The position numbers and the translations under genes were made by a program. Below the pieces are notes generated by a model. The model was not told the DNA's origin, searched no databases, and was given only the letters and a program-made list of their open reading frames with translations. Below, piece by piece: positions 3,003-57,479 of a stretch of 64,000 bases of DNA. Each line of letters begins with the position of its first letter. Within the stretch, counting starts at the first letter, position 1. Source of the stretch: Candidatus Latescibacterota bacterium (GTDB taxonomy: Bacteria > Latescibacterota > UBA2968 > UBA8231); NCBI GenBank assembly GCA_965208105.1, contig OZ242318.1, forward strand, positions 800,001-864,000, read 5' to 3'.

Positions 3003-3392
3003 ATGGACCGAGGCATTGCCGTGGATCTTAAGCAAGAGTGGACCGCCTGCCTGGAAGCGCTCAAGCGGGGAGAATTGACCCCCGAACGATTGCAAGCCGT
3101 GATCGACTCCGTGCCCGACGACAGTCCGGAGAAACGACAGAGTCTGCTCTTCGTTCAGACGTCTCACAACGGAATCAATGCCAAACTGGTTGGGTACCTC
3201 CTGGTGATCAACGGCGAAGCCCAACCGGGTTCTAACAACCCTGAGGAATGGCCCTATCGCACCGTCGCCGACGCGATCAAGGACGGCTGGCGGATCATCT
3301 CCTTCCCCAACACGGCTCTGCTGATGGATCCTGACAACACCTACGGAATCGGCCCCGAGTTCATTCTCGAAAAGATGGAGCCCATAAAATGA
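3003..3392 (+). CDS. Hypothetical protein, translationally coupled to a PhyH dioxygenase
   Basis: 129 aa with motif WPYRTVADAIKDGWRIISFP...EFILEK; ATGA overlap with the next gene. Confidence 0.75.
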   Translation: MDRGIAVDLKQEWTACLEALKRGELTPERLQAVIDSVPDDSPEKRQSLLFVQTSHNGINAKLVGYLLVINGEAQPGSNNPEEWPYRTVADAIKDGWRIISFPNTALLMDPDNTYGIGPEFILEKMEPIK

Positions 3393-29124: not shown

Positions 29125-29625
29125 CTAGAGCCGCAGCTCCCGCTGATGCTCGCGGATATGGCTTCGCGGCGCCGGATAGGAACCCGTAGCACCGTTGGGC
29201 TCGAAGCCCTTGCGGGAATAGAGGGCTATGGCCGGCTGGTTGTGGTCCCCCACGTCCAGCAACAGACGCCGCGCGCCGATGACCCGGGCCCAGGCGGCGA
29301 CCGCGTCGATGAGGGCTTCCCCAACTCCAAGCCCCCTGACCGCCGGAGCGACCCACATGGAGGCCAGCCAGGCCGCGTCGTGCAGCAGGTCATCGCGCTC
29401 GCCCCACACCATGCCCACGTCTTCTTCTTCCGCAACCGCTGCGAAGGCAGCGATCTCCTGGAGCTGCGCCGACCAGCTCTGCGGGGGCCGGGCAGCGGCC
29501 TCGTCATAGGTGCCGCAAAAGGCGTCAGGCGCATCGGCCAGGGCCCGCAGCAGGAGGGCGCGAAGACGGGGTCCCTCGTCGAAGGCGAGGCGTTTAACGC
29601 CAATGGTCCACTCGCGAGATATCAC
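29125..29625 (-). CDS. GNAT N-acetyltransferase
   Basis: SMWVAPAVRGLGVGEALI..NQPAIALYSRKGF. Confidence 0.88.
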   Translation of the reverse strand: MISREWTIGVKRLAFDEGPRLRALLLRALADAPDAFCGTYDEAAARPPQSWSAQLQEIAAFAAVAEEEDVGMVWGERDDLLHDAAWLASMWVAPAVRGLGVGEALIDAVAAWARVIGARRLLLDVGDHNQPAIALYSRKGFEPNGATGSYPAPRSHIREHQRELRL

Positions 29626-29637
29626 CCTTGGAGCCCC

Positions 29638-30033
29638 TCAAAGCGGCTTTCCAAAGCACAGGACATAACCGTCCAGGTCCTTGAGCTCGAATGCGCGAAG
29701 ACCGTCGCTTGTATCAGCCAAGGTTTCATGGAAATCCAGTGAGCGGGCCTGGAACTCGGCGAAAAGAGCGTCGGGATCGGAAGACAGAATGAATGCGTCC
29801 CATCTTGCCCACTCGTGCCGCGTGCAGTTGGGCACAGGAAGGATATCTTCAGAAATTTCCTTGAGAAAAATACTCACCCGGTCGCGACTCACAATTCCGA
29901 AAAACGGGTCTTCTTGGGGAATCAGGAGATCTGTCCCGAATCCAAGTTTTCGATTGTAGAAGTCAATCGACTCGGCAAGGGTCTTTACGATGAAAAATGG
30001 AGCGATCGCCCCAAGGGTCGAATTCTCCGCCAT
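29638..30033 (-). CDS. VOC (glyoxalase/bleomycin-resistance) family protein
   Basis: APFFIVKTLAESIDFYNRKLGF..GLRAFELKDLDGYVLCFG; AGGAGG RBS. Confidence 0.88.
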   Translation of the reverse strand: MAENSTLGAIAPFFIVKTLAESIDFYNRKLGFGTDLLIPQEDPFFGIVSRDRVSIFLKEISEDILPVPNCTRHEWARWDAFILSSDPDALFAEFQARSLDFHETLADTSDGLRAFELKDLDGYVLCFGKPL

Positions 30034-30116
30034 CGTGGATCCTCCTTGTGAACTCCTCATGGCATGGGAACCCGGATGGTTAAAATCAACGCCATTGGGG
30101 GCATTCCCTGTCAAGG

Positions 30117-30177
30117 CGCCGGATTTCACCTTATTTTCAAGCGGACATCCGGCGGTCCTCGAAAGGAGACCGCTCCC
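30117..30177 (+). promoter_or_regulatory. Putative RBS-occluding leader with two overlapping hairpins
   Basis: CGCCGGAT (30117-24) pairs with ATCCGGCG (30147-54); GCGGTC (30152-57) pairs with GACCGC (30168-73), enclosing GAAAGGAG. Confidence 0.45.
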
Positions 30178-31470
30178 ATGTATACCCTCCTTCCTTCTCC
30201 TTCCGATATAGATCAGCTTAAGCTGCAGGCGCGAGAGCTTCGAGATGCCTTCAGCGCCGGCGAAGAGGCAGCCGGACAGCGGGTGCGCCGGCATCGGGGT
30301 TCCGCCGCGCCGGAATTCGCCTGCCTTTCATTGCGCAGCTCCCGGGCAATCATCGCCCGCGAGCACGGATTCACCAGTTGGGACCGTCTCAGGCAGTACA
30401 TCGATTCCCCGGCCAAGCCAGCCGCAAGCGACCACGAAAGAGTGTTGGGGCAACCCCACAGCCGGGAGCGCCTGCGCCGCTTGAGCCGCGAGGAATACCC
30501 CATAACCAGGGGGCAGGTTCAGAATATTCTCGACAAAAACCGGCTTGGCGTTCTATCCAGGTTTGAAACCATCGGTGGAACGAACCTGCCCAACACGGTA
30601 ATCGACATTCGCACCACCTCCGGGGATGGCTTCGTCCTCAAGATTCAGACCCGCTCCCTGCCCGAGTGGTCGCTGCGCCAGGAGCATCAGGCCATTCGCG
30701 TTCTGCAAGGCGTCGACGAGGTGCCGGTGTCGGAGAAGTGTGAACTGGACGAGAGCGGCAAAATTATCCCCTTTCCATACCTGATTTCGAACAGGCTGCA
30801 GGGGCGGCAGGGCGAGCTCTTCTTTCAGCAAGCCGGTCACGAGTCGCGTCTTTCGCTGGCAGAGCAGTTGGGAGATATGACCGCCACAATCCACCAGCAG
30901 ACTCCACCACCGGGCCTGCCGAAGTTGCCCAAGGGCATGCGGAGCGTCGAAGAGGCCCTCCTGGGGAATGCGGCCCTCAAGCGGGAGCTGGAAGCCCAGG
31001 TCCCCGGGTTCGAGCGCCGCATAAAGCGAGCCATGGGCGCCCTGGAAGACACGGAGGAAACGGGCGGCGAGGTGCTGCTGAAGGTGGAGGCTGGCCTGCA
31101 CAATCTCCTCGTTGAGGAGAACGGCAGAAACGTGCGGATAAGCGGTCTCTTCGACTTCCAGGCAGCCCGCATCGGCCCCCGAATCACCGACCTGACCAAG
31201 GTCGAGGGCAGCATTGCCACCCACGCGGCGCGAGGCCCATCATGTCCGTCCCCTCACAGGGACCGCTACGTGGAAGCCATGCGCCAGGCTTACCGAGGCC
31301 GGTGTGGCTTCAATCCGGAGTTCGACGACGAAGCGCACCTGATGCTCGACCTGGTCGGACATGCCCGCCTGGTGCGCTACTGGTGGGACTGCTTCGAATA
31401 CCTGCACCCCAGGAACCCGCTGTGGATAGAGCGGGTGGTGCTCGGATTGATGCGGCTGGGAGGAGGCTAG
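30178..31470 (+). CDS. Aminoglycoside-phosphotransferase-like kinase fold with N-terminal helical 'LPxxP..REHGFxSW' module
   Basis: N-term LLPSPSDIDQLKLQARELR..IIAREHGFTSWDRL; FVLKI, PFPYLI, HNLLV, GLFDFQ. Confidence 0.8.
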   Translation: MYTLLPSPSDIDQLKLQARELRDAFSAGEEAAGQRVRRHRGSAAPEFACLSLRSSRAIIAREHGFTSWDRLRQYIDSPAKPAASDHERVLGQPHSRERLRRLSREEYPITRGQVQNILDKNRLGVLSRFETIGGTNLPNTVIDIRTTSGDGFVLKIQTRSLPEWSLRQEHQAIRVLQGVDEVPVSEKCELDESGKIIPFPYLISNRLQGRQGELFFQQAGHESRLSLAEQLGDMTATIHQQTPPPGLPKLPKGMRSVEEALLGNAALKRELEAQVPGFERRIKRAMGALEDTEETGGEVLLKVEAGLHNLLVEENGRNVRISGLFDFQAARIGPRITDLTKVEGSIATHAARGPSCPSPHRDRYVEAMRQAYRGRCGFNPEFDDEAHLMLDLVGHARLVRYWWDCFEYLHPRNPLWIERVVLGLMRLGGG

Positions 31471-54636: not shown

Positions 54637-55410
54637 CTAGGCTTGCTCCTCGGGCGACTTGAAGAGGGAAATCCGGTTGCCGGCAATGTCGTTGAATATC
54701 GCCATGGAACCGAAGCCGCCGGGGATCTCACTGGGCTGCATCAGGGCGGTTGCGCCGAGGCTCACCGCCTTGTCGAGGTAAGCCTGCAGGTCGTCAACCT
54801 CGACCGCAACCGAAGGGGCGTTGGGGGGCATGCCTTCCATGTGCTGAAATATGCCGCCGCCGATGCCGTCCGGCGCCCTCTCTACGAGGCGGTAGGTCAT
54901 GCCGTTTCCCATGTCCACGGCATTTACCTGCCAGCCGAACATTTTGGTGTAGAAGTCTTCGAGCGCCGCGGCGTCGCTGCCGCCGAGCTCGAAATGGACT
55001 ACGCGGGGATGATCGGCCAATGGAGGCATCTCACCGTCCCAATCGGGGGGAAGCGAGTACAGGCCGATGGTGTTTTGGGCGGGATCCTGGAACATGGCGA
55101 TGGAGCCCATGCCGGGGGCAATCTCCATGGGCGGCAACACGCCGGCGCCACCCATGGCGGACAGCTTGTCCAGGGCCTCCTGAAGGTCGTTTACCTGGAT
55201 GTAGAAGGTCACGTAGCTGCGGACGGGCATGTCCTCGGTGGTTCCCATGATGCCGCCGCCGATCCCGCCCACGGTGGACTGCACCAGGCCGTAGTTGCCC
55301 ATCTCCTCGCCCTGTACCTGCACCTGCCAGCCGAAGAGGTCCTGGTAGAATTTCTGCAAGGCGGGACCGTCGGGGCCCCCGATTTCAAAGTGGACTACTG
55401 GATTTCCCAT
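54637..55410 (-). CDS. Tandem-domain VOC/glyoxalase family protein
   Basis: Two copies of VVHFE.GG.D..AL..FY...FGW..GIGGGI..V.DL..A.F.D.A.N.I; GAGGAGG RBS. Confidence 0.92.
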   Translation of the reverse strand: MGNPVVHFEIGGPDGPALQKFYQDLFGWQVQVQGEEMGNYGLVQSTVGGIGGGIMGTTEDMPVRSYVTFYIQVNDLQEALDKLSAMGGAGVLPPMEIAPGMGSIAMFQDPAQNTIGLYSLPPDWDGEMPPLADHPRVVHFELGGSDAAALEDFYTKMFGWQVNAVDMGNGMTYRLVERAPDGIGGGIFQHMEGMPPNAPSVAVEVDDLQAYLDKAVSLGATALMQPSEIPGGFGSMAIFNDIAGNRISLFKSPEEQA

Positions 55411-55545
55411 TGCTCCTCCTCAGGTTTATGGAAAGTCTGAGAAAATGGACCCAAACTCCAAAATTATCAATACAAAAATGGAGTTGGGTCCCGAATTATC
55501 AGATATCGGTCTGGTTGCCCCTGCAGCCTATTCTGCCCGTATCAG

Positions 55546-55582
55546 GATCAACCTGGAGACGTGGATTCCCTGTCCACTGCAC
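55546..55582. repeat. 37-bp direct repeat, copy 1
   Basis: gatcaacctggagacgtggattccctgtccactgcac; 34/37 identical to 56277-56313. Confidence 0.85.
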
Positions 55583-55658
55583 GCGCCTCATCTACGGCAT
55601 ATCCAAGCACGCTTTTGACGGAATGTGCGAATGAGACACCCCTGCTCTGCCTGGAGCT

Positions 55659-56126
55659 TCAACTGGACATGGACCGCTCTAACGCGCGCCGCACCTCATC
55701 GGGCCTGACTCCCAATTCCTCCAGCAAGGGGCCGACAACGGGCCGCATCACCTTTCCCACCAGGGCGAGCAGCAGATGCTCGAAGCCCACTTCCCAGTTG
55801 CCCCGACTAAAAGCTTCTTCGTGCGGCAACTCGAGGACCCTTTTGACTGGGGCGGCAACGCGGGGCTGTTTGGCTGCTTTTTCGACGAAGGCAATCATTT
55901 TCGGCCAGCTCTCAAAGCCGTAATCGCGAGAAAGCGCGAATTGAGCCTCCTGCACCGTAATTCTGTTGTGCCAGCCCCCGTCACGGGGTTGACCGGCCAA
56001 GCGCGGAAGGTGCGCGCGCAGGAGCCTTCTGGCAGACTCCTGGCCGTCGTGACAGGCTTTCTGCAGTTGCCTTGCCTCTTTCTTGAGGTGCTCTTTGCTT
56101 GGTCGAAATGGAAGTGAACGGGACAT
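55659..56126 (-). CDS. Small protein: N-terminal 'LPxRPSxEHLKK..RDYGFESW' module plus Clp N-terminal repeat
   Basis: SLPFRPSKEHLKKEARQL..AQFALSRDYGFESWPK; KRVLEL..EEA..EVGFEHLLLAL..LLEELGV. Confidence 0.8.
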   Translation of the reverse strand: MSRSLPFRPSKEHLKKEARQLQKACHDGQESARRLLRAHLPRLAGQPRDGGWHNRITVQEAQFALSRDYGFESWPKMIAFVEKAAKQPRVAAPVKRVLELPHEEAFSRGNWEVGFEHLLLALVGKVMRPVVGPLLEELGVRPDEVRRALERSMSS

Positions 56127-56240
56127 AAGTACCCTCTTTCCGAAGTGCCGGATCGTCCGCCAGGACCGGCAGAAAGAAGGTGGATTGTACAGCGAGGTGG
56201 GGTGGGCTGTGCCCTGACCGCGAACGTGGGCGCTCCCCCG
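56127..56240 (-). ncRNA. Putative structured cis-regulatory leader RNA
   Basis: Stems GCCC/GGGC, ACAGC/GCUGU and CCUUCUUUC/GAAAGAGGG (hides the RBS) enclosing UGCCG/CGGCA and GUCC-UGGC-GGAC; AT-rich -10-like sequence just upstream. Confidence 0.55.
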
Positions 56241-56276
56241 AAAGCACTATTCTAAATATACTAGAACAAAGTCTGC

Positions 56277-56313
56277 GATCAACCTGGAGACGTAGATCCC
56301 CTGTCAACTGCAC
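56277..56313. repeat. 37-bp direct repeat, copy 2 (contains minus-strand TTGACA)
   Basis: gatcaacctggagacgtagatcccctgtcaactgcac. Confidence 0.85.
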
Positions 56314-56390
56314 CTGCTGTCCCCGGGCGAGAACAAGGCTTGGCAACCCGCTGAAGCACTCACTCGTGAGGTCTGTTGCCCATCAAATCC

Positions 56391-56406
56391 CAAAATAGCT
56401 ATTTTG
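56391..56406. promoter_or_regulatory. Palindromic operator of the Phd/YefM TA locus
   Basis: Perfect 16-bp palindrome CAAAATAGCTATTTTG, 5 nt before the antitoxin ATG. Confidence 0.65.
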
Positions 56407-56411
56407 AATCC

Positions 56412-56663
56412 ATGAAAAAGATTGCTGCAAGAGAGGCGAAGAATCGCTTCGGCCGATTGCTCGATGCCGCCCAAAGCGCACCTGTCTGCGTGACCAAGAA
56501 AGGCAGGGCAGTCGGGGTGGTTATGTCCATGGAGCAGTACCAACGGCTGCGGGGCGCCGCATGGGCGCGCTTGACGGCAACCATGGGCAGCCTAGGTGCC
56601 GAGGCGGCCTCAAAGGGATTAACCGAGGCCAAGCTCGAAGCGCTCCTGGCCGATGGGAGTTGA
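56412..56663 (+). CDS. Phd/YefM family antitoxin
   Basis: MKKIAAREAKNRFGRLLDAAQSAPVCVTKKGRAVGVVMS. Confidence 0.92.
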   Translation: MKKIAAREAKNRFGRLLDAAQSAPVCVTKKGRAVGVVMSMEQYQRLRGAAWARLTATMGSLGAEAASKGLTEAKLEALLADGS

Positions 56664-56830
56664 ACGCCTCGGGCGGTTGTGGACAGGATACAAAAGGCCA
56701 ACGGAGTCCTTTCTGTTCTCCGACGAGACCTTCGATGAGCTGCGGACCCGGCTCCAATATTCCAAATTTGACAAGTATGTCGGCCGCGATGGCCGCAGGT
56801 TGTACCTGTCTCAGCTCGAAGCCGCGAGCG
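56653..56830 (+). pseudogene. Degenerate PIN-family toxin
   Basis: FLFSDETFDELRTRL..SKFDKYV..RRLYLSQL resembles an internal PIN segment; the N-terminal DTN motif and C-terminal acidic motifs are missing. Confidence 0.6.
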
Positions 56831-56912
56831 CGGCGAAGTGGACGCCATCAAGTGTCGGACCCTTTCCGACACAGTCACATGCAGTCCTTCCAGGACAACT
56901 CCGCACGCTCCG

Positions 56913-57320
56913 TCATTTTTCCATTCTGTAGACGCCGATGCGAAAGCCGTACTCCTTGTAGAAGGCAACCGCGTCCTTGTTGTGGGCGAACACGTCCAAC
57001 CTGACCTTCTTGTCCGTCCACGCCTTCTCGTACAGCCAATCCAGCAACCGCGTAGCGATGCCCTTCCGGCGGTATGCTTTGCGTACGTACAATTGCCTCA
57101 TGTAGTAGTACGAACCCTCATCCCTGAACAAGCAGTAGGCGATGATGCGGCTGTTTTCTTTCACCAGGTAGCAGATGTATCCGCCTGCCAGCCATTCCTT
57201 CATCCGTCGGGTGAGCTGGGCAACGTCCATGGGATTGGGGTGCCGTTCGTCCTCGATGAGACCCTTGTTCAGCTCGGCGAGTCCTTCGACATCCACAAGC
57301 TCTGCTCTGACAATCTCCAT
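56913..57320 (-). CDS. GNAT N-acetyltransferase
   Basis: RQLYVRKAYRRKGIATRLL..NKDAVAFYKEYGF. Confidence 0.88.
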   Translation of the reverse strand: MEIVRAELVDVEGLAELNKGLIEDERHPNPMDVAQLTRRMKEWLAGGYICYLVKENSRIIAYCLFRDEGSYYYMRQLYVRKAYRRKGIATRLLDWLYEKAWTDKKVRLDVFAHNKDAVAFYKEYGFRIGVYRMEK

Positions 57321-57479
57321 TTGAACGGGCCTCAAGCGCTTCGGCCGGCGCGTGGCAAGGAGGGTCAACCATATGTTGCGGGGCCATCTCGGTCAGTCGT
57401 CCATTCATCGCGCGCTGTTCGGGTGAGGTCCGACAATGCCCGGCGTTGATTGCCCGCGGAATCGAAGTTTTCCGGTGCC

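Follow-up and report, generated by a model that had tools for sequence, protein, structure and literature searches.

The DNA analyzed here, referred to below as the window, is a stretch of 64,000 nucleotides (nt) from the 4.85-Mb genome of a Candidatus Latescibacterota bacterium (contig OZ242318.1, positions 800,001 to 864,000; window coordinates count from its first nucleotide). On its reverse strand, a gene at 55659 to 56126 (start codon at 56126-56124) encodes a protein of 155 amino acids (aa), which consists of an N-terminal module (residues 1 to 85; 55872 to 56126) with the consensus LPxxPxLEQLKKQAKxLL...LxDAQLVLARxYGFxSWPKL and one Clp_N repeat (residues 102 to 153; 55668 to 55823). Upstream of the gene lies a leader of ~121 nt (56127 to 56248, reverse strand), which was matched by a covariance model as well as by an nhmmer profile. 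Judged against its relatives, this 5′ untranslated region (UTR) is predicted to be a copy of a conserved RNA motif with four helices (H1 to H4) and two pseudoknots (PK1 and PK2). As far as sequence comparison can tell, this leader fold and the N-terminal module are found together in many phyla and with many different C-terminal domains; the unusual point is the joining of a folded leader and a protein domain into a single movable unit. A first-pass annotation, made by a model from the letters of the window, had proposed an RNA-protein regulatory module at this site; the observation was confirmed and is larger than first described.

Architecture of the window leader

Between positions 55400 and 56450, the sole promoter-like site was a sigma-70-type promoter on the reverse strand (56255 to 56282), with the elements TTGATC (56282-56277) and TATATT (56260-56255) separated by 16 nt. 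The position of this promoter puts the transcription start at ~56248, at the foot of H1, and thus gives a leader of ~121 nt, with the motif making up the entire 5′ UTR. The covariance model R1, which was built from 74 aligned leaders and describes H1 to H4 only (no pseudoknots), matched at 56124-56253 with 78.7 bits (E 2e-13), and the nhmmer match of the leader had an E value of 1.3e-25. The first-pass annotation had estimated ~115 nt; that the leader is structured was upheld, and its length had to be revised on the basis of the predicted start.

From its 5′ end, the predicted RNA begins with hairpin H1 (56230 to 56247, reverse strand, as for all parts of the leader), in which GUGCU (56247-56243) pairs with AGCGC (56234-56230) around the loop UUCGGGGG. 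Four nucleotides of this loop, GGGG (56236 to 56239), form the 5′ strand of PK1 and would pair with CCCC (56199 to 56202), located directly after H2. The latter is a short hairpin (56204 to 56214) with the strands GGGC and GCCC and the loop ACA. Between H1 and H2 lies the 5′ strand of PK2, GUUCGC (56220 to 56225; consensus GUCCGC), whose partner GCGGAC (56160-56155) is held in the loop of H4. Both pseudoknots are outside the covariance model. H4 (56146 to 56171) is a hairpin of 6 bp (UGCCGG with CCGGCA) and is enclosed by H3, a helix of 9 bp between the strand CCUUCUUUC (56180-56172), which is complementary to the Shine-Dalgarno (SD) sequence and is termed anti-SD here, and the SD region GAAAGAGGG (56140-56132). 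H3 therefore covers the SD sequence, and the 9-bp helix that had earlier been described as burying the ribosome-binding site (RBS) upstream of the gene was borne out in this form.

Folded alone, the window leader had a minimum free energy (MFE) of -44.2 kcal/mol, which was no better than that of shuffled sequences (z -0.13; 87 of 200 shuffles equally good). A single sequence is therefore no proof of the fold, and significance comes only from the comparison of leaders.

Conservation and distribution of the RNA motif

Proteins with the module were listed by sequence search in the genome of the window, and the 200 nt upstream of each gene were compared. The module forms the N terminus of eight proteins (nine matches with a profile), and ~130 nt before the ATG were common to four of their genes, namely, the window gene and three ankyrin-repeat genes (L002 to L004). 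RNAalifold applied to these four leaders returned H1, H2, and the long-range helix GUCCGC:GCGGAC (PK2) with compensatory changes. An nhmmer profile of the four leaders matched, at E < 0.01, only these four sites in the genome, with no sign of similarity to rRNA, and R1 found exactly four copies, all before module genes. A candidate fifth copy (L098; G000:C1:2738198-2738346, reverse strand) was rejected as not significant (R1 E 0.86; nhmmer E 0.1; no module start in the open reading frame [ORF] behind it). This weak look-alike has words of the 5′ domain and of the anti-SD strand in common with the motif.

The motif was then followed into other genomes by way of the protein and, separately, by way of the RNA. 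The protein-seeded sample comprised 343 stretches in contigs of one genome per species, with 322 confirmed relatives, of which 80 were kept. The four-leader nhmmer profile matched the plus strand of 78 of these 80 loci, the exceptions being L057 and L093. At L090 the match lay ~580 nt upstream of the module match, at L056 it was split by an insertion of ~195 nt in the linker, and the leader of L045 was devoid of the H4/PK2 part. The RNA-seeded sample was drawn from species genomes by scanning for the 5′ domain with a degenerate 25-letter pattern and no protein input; it yielded at least 120 stretches, from which 80 loci were taken. A full-length R1 match was present at 77 of them (exceptions L099, L123, and L178). 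According to their record titles, R1-positive loci belong to ~10 phyla and include Acidobacteriota, Actinomycetota (Streptomyces, Amycolatopsis, Nonomuraea, and others), Verrucomicrobiota, Planctomycetota, Gemmatimonadota, Latescibacterota, Myxococcota, Armatimonadota, Bdellovibrionota, Candidatus Eiseniibacteriota, and two metagenome-assembled genomes (MAGs) of Alphaproteobacteria. Within the phylum of the window, the motif was detected at E ≤ 1e-5 in 57 of 151 sampled genomes, in numbers from 1 to 16 per genome.

For the analysis of covariation, 100 matches were realigned to R1 (99 of 100 sources matched, L049 twice), and pairs were counted for H1 to H4, PK1, and PK2. Standard pairs occupied 95.4% of cells, compared to 85.9% ± 0.3% in shuffles, and pairing fell to 35.6 to 48.1% of cells when the 3′ partners were slid by 1 to 3 columns. 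Changes on both sides were observed in 26 of 31 pairs, and none of 500 shuffles reached the observed value on any of five measures. Covariation among leaders, which the first-pass annotation had named as a check of its proposal, was thus strong. All six helices contributed: H1 was paired in 95.3% of cells, with both-side changes in 2 of 3 pairs, and the respective values were 99.0% and 4 of 4 compensatory pairs for H2, 90.1% and 8 of 9 for H3, 99.2% and 5 of 5 for H4, 92.3% and 3 of 4 for PK1, and 99.8% and 4 of 6 for PK2. In PK1, four nucleotides of the H1 loop pair with four nucleotides after H2 as CAGG:CCUG, AAGG:CCUU, GAGG:CCUC, or UCGG:CCGA (GGGG:CCCC in the window). PK2, formed by GUCCGC between H1 and H2 with GCGGAC in the H4 loop, also occurred as GUUCGC:GCGAAC, GCCUGC:GCAGGC, GUCUGC:GCAGAC, and ACCCGC:GCGGGU. 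Since PK1 and PK2 are absent from the covariance model used for the alignment, their support is independent of that model. Two reservations concern the nested helices, which the model itself fitted, and the shuffle tests, which relatedness among the sequences inflates; the slid controls and the unmodeled pseudoknots are the stronger evidence. Among the unpaired positions, CC before PK2, GGrAA before H2, and A after H2 are near-invariant junction nucleotides. The linker between the 5′ domain and H3 varied from 14 to 65 nt, and 20 of the 100 leaders had an extra GC-rich, hairpin-like insert of at least 8 nt (8 to 23 nt; alignment columns 189 to 211; e.g., L038, L053, and L066) between H4 and the SD sequence. 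The abundance of U-G pairs in H3 is consistent with an RNA transcribed in this orientation. In sum, the 5′ UTR holds a covarying, aptamer-like fold of the kind expected of a riboswitch.

Promoter-like sequences indicated that the motif generally begins where transcription begins. In 83 of 100 leaders, a TANNNT box started 4 to 9 nt ahead of model position 1, compared to 6 of 100 in a control window farther upstream; it was found anywhere between -15 and +6 in 90 leaders and was accompanied by TTGnnn at a spacing of 16 to 18 nt in 46. At the other end, every full R1 match terminated at the start codon. For the 3′ domain of H3 and H4, the median folding energy was -22.6 kcal/mol, and in 86 of 99 leaders the SD tetramer was fully paired in the MFE structure of this domain, as would be expected of an expression platform. 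H3 consists of a pyrimidine-rich anti-SD strand and the SD sequence, and in many members pairing extends to the start codon. No terminator-like U tract follows H3, which argues for control at translation initiation, and since all six helices are mutually compatible, the resting fold is predicted to be compact and closed to translation. An alternative "open" pairing between the anti-SD strand and GGrAAGG, a conserved stretch of the 5′ domain, was considered and discarded; it did not covary (A44 faces C143 in 17 sequences and U143 in 11).

Permissive cmscan searches of Rfam 15 gave no match over a leader, neither in the window at 55000-57000 (E ≤ 10) nor for L002 to L004, L006, and L007 (E ≤ 5) or 12 further strong leaders (E ≤ 1), which agrees with the earlier statement that the RNA matches no named Rfam family. 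Full-text literature searches (ankyrin combined with riboswitch or structured RNA, and discovery series) found no such motif in the texts as distinct from their supplements, which may list unnamed candidates; the passages retrieved from the main text of PMC11109978 and PMC8632094 contain neither the word "ankyrin" nor a matching motif. By these comparisons, the leader RNA would be a widespread cis-acting class outside all Rfam 15 families.

The N-terminal module and its association with the leader

At 72 of the 77 RNA-seeded loci with a full-length RNA match, the next ORF began with the module, as detected by a module hidden Markov model. These include L125, where the RNA is reduced to its 5′ half and the module to its C-terminal half. 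The exceptions comprised a contig end (L161), a 30-bit match that is probably due to chance (L139), a locus with no ORF (L100), and a module-like start followed by divergence (L173), in addition to L115, which is taken up below. A second estimate came from 21 whole genomes, i.e., that of the window and 20 relatives, of which 10 had the module and 9 had the RNA. Their 42 RNA copies comprised 37 with an intact module ORF directly downstream, 4 with a broken one, and 1 whose ORF had no module. The four broken cases (L219 to L222, in G004, G010, G005, and G001, respectively) are strong RNA copies whose ORFs start like the module and then run into a frameshift or an early stop; either pseudogenes or errors in the assembly of the MAGs could explain them. 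The RNA therefore precedes genes of one protein family and is found essentially nowhere else (72 of 77 RNA-seeded loci, 41 of 42 copies in the 21 genomes if the broken ORFs are included, and 4 of 4 in the genome of the window). The dependence is one-way, in that the RNA relies on a module gene and modules can do without the RNA.

The module was also the only feature common to the downstream genes. Pfam searches of 57 module proteins assigned their C-terminal parts to ankyrin repeats in 43 cases, LRR in 6, FHA plus GGDEF in 2, and FliG_N, DHBP synthase (RibB), and APH in 1 each, and found no family in 3. This set includes four leaderless genes of the window's genome, namely, the ankyrin genes L006 and L008 and those of both APH proteins. 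The earlier statement that the module occurs on ankyrin, Clp-N, and enzyme proteins agrees with these assignments. On the upstream side, no recurrent Pfam family was found among 40 neighbors (68 upstream ORFs were computed), save tandem ankyrin paralogues and an HNH gene beside two Clp_N orthologues. Module genes can be arranged in tandem; at L049 a second leader (3142-3237) begins ~1.6 kb downstream of the first, and at L060 and L026 an ankyrin ORF lies immediately upstream of the module gene.

Residues 1 to 85 of the window protein have no Pfam match. They are basic (isoelectric point [pI] 10.4, net charge +8) and helical, and an AlphaFold2 model of the module computed with 147 sequences has five helices (mean predicted local distance difference test score 81.5, predicted template modeling score 0.66). 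Together with the Pfam match of residues 102 to 153 (PF02861), this sustains the earlier description of a basic helical module plus a Clp-N repeat. Across the module set the median pI was 9.64, and the net charge was positive in 82%. Lysine or arginine is conserved at module positions 15, 16, 19 (100%), 23, 26, 67, 76, and 78, including along helix 1, and a conserved aromatic loop reads ARxYGFxSWPKL (core YGFxSW). On the strength of the basic pI, the conserved basic residues, and the aromatic loop, the module could bind nucleic acid.

The module family is large. A module profile run against 1.84 billion representatives (50%-identity clusters) matched 11,449 clusters at E ≤ 1e-3 and 6,726 at E ≤ 1e-10, and among the 150 matches listed the module nearly always occupied residues 1 to 100, sometimes in tandem. 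NCBIfam gave no match to the module, and a search of the ESM Atlas returned unnamed clusters only. The only curated model that touches it is the N-terminal part of Pfam PF20066 (Glyoxalase_8), with 12 of 147 modules matching at E ≤ 0.01. The N-terminal ~70 profile positions of PF20066 resemble the module, whereas it is the glyoxalase part that defines this Pfam family, in which the module does not count as a separate domain. Membership in PF20066 was rejected for both module proteins of the window: the one encoded at 30178, described next, reached 14.4 bits (cutoff 23.7), and the Clp_N protein gave no match.

This second module gene of the window (30178..31470, forward strand) encodes the module (30178-30432; module profile E 9e-22) and an APH-type kinase domain (E 3e-17), and its protein matches profile positions 7 to 70 of PF20066. 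Its leader (30050-30190) folds well compared to shuffles (z -3.09), has a paired SD sequence, and holds the words GCGGAC and CGAAAGGAG, and there is no 5′ domain. As a member of the motif it was ruled out (R1 5.1 bits, E 2.3, filters off); it may be a decayed or separate derivative. Hence, of what had been noted for this gene, the module, the kinase-like domain, the shared leader words, and the paired SD sequence were all found, while its leader is not the same RNA element. The same division applies to the earlier interpretation as a whole: the unit of RNA and protein domain persisted, and the inclusion of the 30178 leader in it had to be dropped.

The Clp_N gene itself is predicted to be a shortened form of a two-repeat Clp_N protein. 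Its repeat exceeds the PF02861 cutoff (E 8.8e-6; 26.2 bits versus 20.7); the full domain consists of two repeats, of which the second is lost here, and there is no AAA+ ATPase part. About 26 close homologues exist, mostly of ~231 aa with two repeats. Beyond the stop codon (55659-55661), which follows repeat 1, the same frame still encodes part of repeat 2 (55569 to 55655, reverse strand), and tblastn with a homologue of 231 aa (P0003) reads past the stop as far as residue 186. Two relatives of 155 aa (P0001 and P0002; 94% and 84% identity) terminate at the identical place, which indicates that the short form was inherited and is not an assembly error. Gene and leader are flanked by two copies of a 37-nt direct repeat (55546..55582 and 56277..56313, forward strand) that are 92% identical, lie 731 nt apart, and are the sole two copies genome-wide. 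Copy 1 lies inside the remnant of the second Clp_N repeat, which ends in it, and copy 2 overlaps the -35 box of the leader promoter. The pair suggests a past duplication or deletion at this locus; a mobile cassette of the integron/attC type was ruled out, since there are only two copies in the genome, one of them within the gene remnant.

In the region 56412-56931, a gene for a Phd/YefM-type antitoxin (PF02604, E 2.4e-12) diverges from the leader promoter, and an ORF of 92 aa with no Pfam match overlaps its end and may encode the corresponding toxin or what is left of it. The two module genes of the window each adjoin a glyoxalase/bleomycin-resistance-type gene and a GNAT acetyltransferase gene (29125-30033 and 54637-57368), surroundings that look like a local cluster of small "resistance-like" enzymes.

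Possible readers of the leader

Taken together, leader RNA and module point to a new portable gene control device. By its predicted fold, the element would act like an SD-sequestering riboswitch or an autogenous leader, in no named family of either. We favor the reading that the module binds its own leader and forms a putative autoregulatory pair with it, to which we assign a probability of roughly 0.4. The module was ranked first as the reader because it is the sole constant among the genes, because the dependence is one-way, because the domain is basic, and because ribosomal-protein leaders provide a precedent. In this scheme, the transcript would start at H1, the loop of which docks onto the strand after H2 (PK1), and the conserved GUCCGC would dock into the loop of H4 (PK2), itself nested in the SD-closing H3. 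The module, in cis or supplied in trans by paralogues, would recognize the docked H1/PK1/PK2/H2 junction, and binding would determine the frequency of H3 opening and so provide translational feedback. This would most likely be of the negative kind, as in ribosomal-protein leaders. Leader and module would then constitute a control cassette complete in itself, which has been joined to many C-terminal domains in the course of evolution. Somewhat more tentatively, we put forward the fuller claim that the module is a new structure-specific RNA-binding domain whose cognate RNA is its own double-pseudoknotted 5′ UTR, the two serving as a portable feedback cassette on at least seven kinds of C-terminal domain in ~10 phyla. 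In a bolder version, the protein might retain its leader as an RNA cofactor, and the functional unit would be a ribonucleoprotein.

Several observations weigh against an autoregulatory pair. Two intact RNA copies stand before genes with no module, one before an ankyrin ORF (L115) and one before a FliG-like ORF of 96 aa (L223; G005:C68:46974-47109); these two loci are natural test cases for the RNA's need of a module in cis. Conversely, 25 of 62 module matches in the 21 genomes had no RNA, some of them partial or internal copies, and in the window's genome 4 of 8 were full-length genes (L005 to L008) for which no R1 match was obtained even with filters off. The module must therefore have some role that is independent of its own leader. 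No recognizable RNA-binding fold was found in it by three kinds of comparison: the best hit of a sequence-profile search of the PDB was a designed protein (E 0.007), Foldseek of the module model against the PDB returned nothing at E ≤ 0.001, and the best Z score of a wide VIA-align search was 3.8. The core of the RNA (GCGG, AAGG) is near-invariant across the ~10 phyla represented by record titles, as opposed to a mean column identity of 20% among modules, and such a difference in conservation suits an invariant small ligand at least equally well. Finally, no conserved alternative pairing that opens H3 was found in the 100-leader alignment. By prediction, the RNA is firmly shut even without a partner, so that there seems to be little need for a repressor, and a signal that activates is equally plausible.

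These points lead to the reading ranked second, that of a new riboswitch class, which we consider possible and rather doubtful. Here the H1/PK1/PK2/H2 junction would be the aptamer for a small molecule or ion, the ligand would alter PK2 docking and thereby access to H3 and the SD sequence, and the module proteins would be the regulon of that signal; the module would keep its place behind the RNA, as new fusions form on the downstream side of the module. The architecture is in keeping with this, with two pseudoknots around near-invariant unpaired nucleotides (CC, GGrAA, and A) at a multihelix junction, a core much more conserved than the module, an SD sequence in a stable helix as would suit an ON switch or activating ligand, and two subdomains joined by a linker of variable length (14 to 65 nt). 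ZTP riboswitches are likewise built of two subdomains with a variable linker. The module-less copies at L115 and L223 and the broad, patchy distribution (57 of 151 genomes of the phylum, 1 to 16 copies) would also be in line with a ligand-sensing RNA. The gene complement is not: the regulated genes have no pathway or ligand function in common, their C-terminal domains are diverse and their neighbors unrelated, and no metabolic or transport theme emerges, the module alone being shared. With 72 of 77 and 41 of 42 copies located before module ORFs, no transporter, biosynthetic, or other unrelated family stands behind the RNA; moreover, no Rfam riboswitch family matched, and the gene context suggests no candidate ligand.

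The H3 switch might also be read by something else, such as a trans-acting RNA-binding protein, a small RNA, an SD-freeing RNase, the ribosome, or temperature, or the leader might simply confer constitutive low translation together with protection of the 5′ end. We regard this group of explanations as unlikely, even though H3 plus H4 is very stable with no conserved alternative open fold, H3 is rich in U-G and U-A pairs (columns 143/218 are UG in 48 and UA in 13 sequences, and columns 146/216 are UG in 26), and the RNA begins at the transcription start, where structures are known to stabilize mRNAs. A plain attenuator or thermometer needs only H3, which leaves the compensatory selection on H1, H2, PK1, and PK2 unexplained, and a general trans factor does not account for the confinement of the RNA to module genes, nor was a conserved neighbor gene found that could encode one. 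We give the least credence, as quite improbable, to the notion that RNA and module are merely hitchhiking, linked by adjacency and joint duplication with no functional tie. It is true that the paralogues in the window's genome have both leader and module in common, that tandem copies exist (L049), and that domain fusions arise 3′ of the module, so that the 5′ leader is kept regardless. Yet the pair persists over ~10 phyla (by record titles) in which modules have diverged to ~20 to 40% identity and many base pairs have been compensated, and the module survives loss of the RNA while the reverse is rare (two intact cases), an asymmetry not expected from neutral linkage.

Among known systems, the autoregulatory leaders of ribosomal proteins, such as the rpsO (S15) pseudoknot and the long-range pseudoknot of infC-rpmI-rplT read by L20, resemble the favored autoregulatory pair in that a pseudoknotted 5′ UTR involving the RBS directly precedes the gene of a small basic helical protein and the RNA is confined to one family. 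Unlike in these, the putative binder here is no ribosomal protein; it is a portable N-terminal domain on unrelated C-terminal domains, with up to 16 RNA-gene pairs per genome. Translational riboswitches in which the SD sequence is part of a pseudoknotted fold include SAM-II/V, preQ1-II/III, and guanidine-III. With these and the ZTP riboswitches the leader has in common pseudoknots, conserved junction nucleotides, and SD sequestration with no terminator, and with the two-subdomain ZTP riboswitch also the variable linker and a long-range pseudoknot between subdomains; it differs in having no Rfam match and in that the regulated genes share a domain rather than a pathway. FourU and ROSE thermometers similarly place a U-rich strand on the SD sequence through many A-U and G-U pairs, whereas here an additional 5′ domain of ~60 nt and two pseudoknots are conserved and covary.

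If these findings hold, a large, phylogenetically broad, and structurally complex RNA class is missing from Rfam 15, and it heads genes of a domain family (~11,449 clusters at 50% identity) that no curated library names. Should the RNA be a riboswitch, it would represent a new class with an unexplained regulon of repeat proteins; should leader and module be an autoregulatory pair, it would be the first RNA-protein pair behaving as a movable cassette. In either case, the motif would offer a compact candidate part for synthetic gene control and a handle for annotating thousands of proteins now listed as "ankyrin repeat" or "hypothetical."

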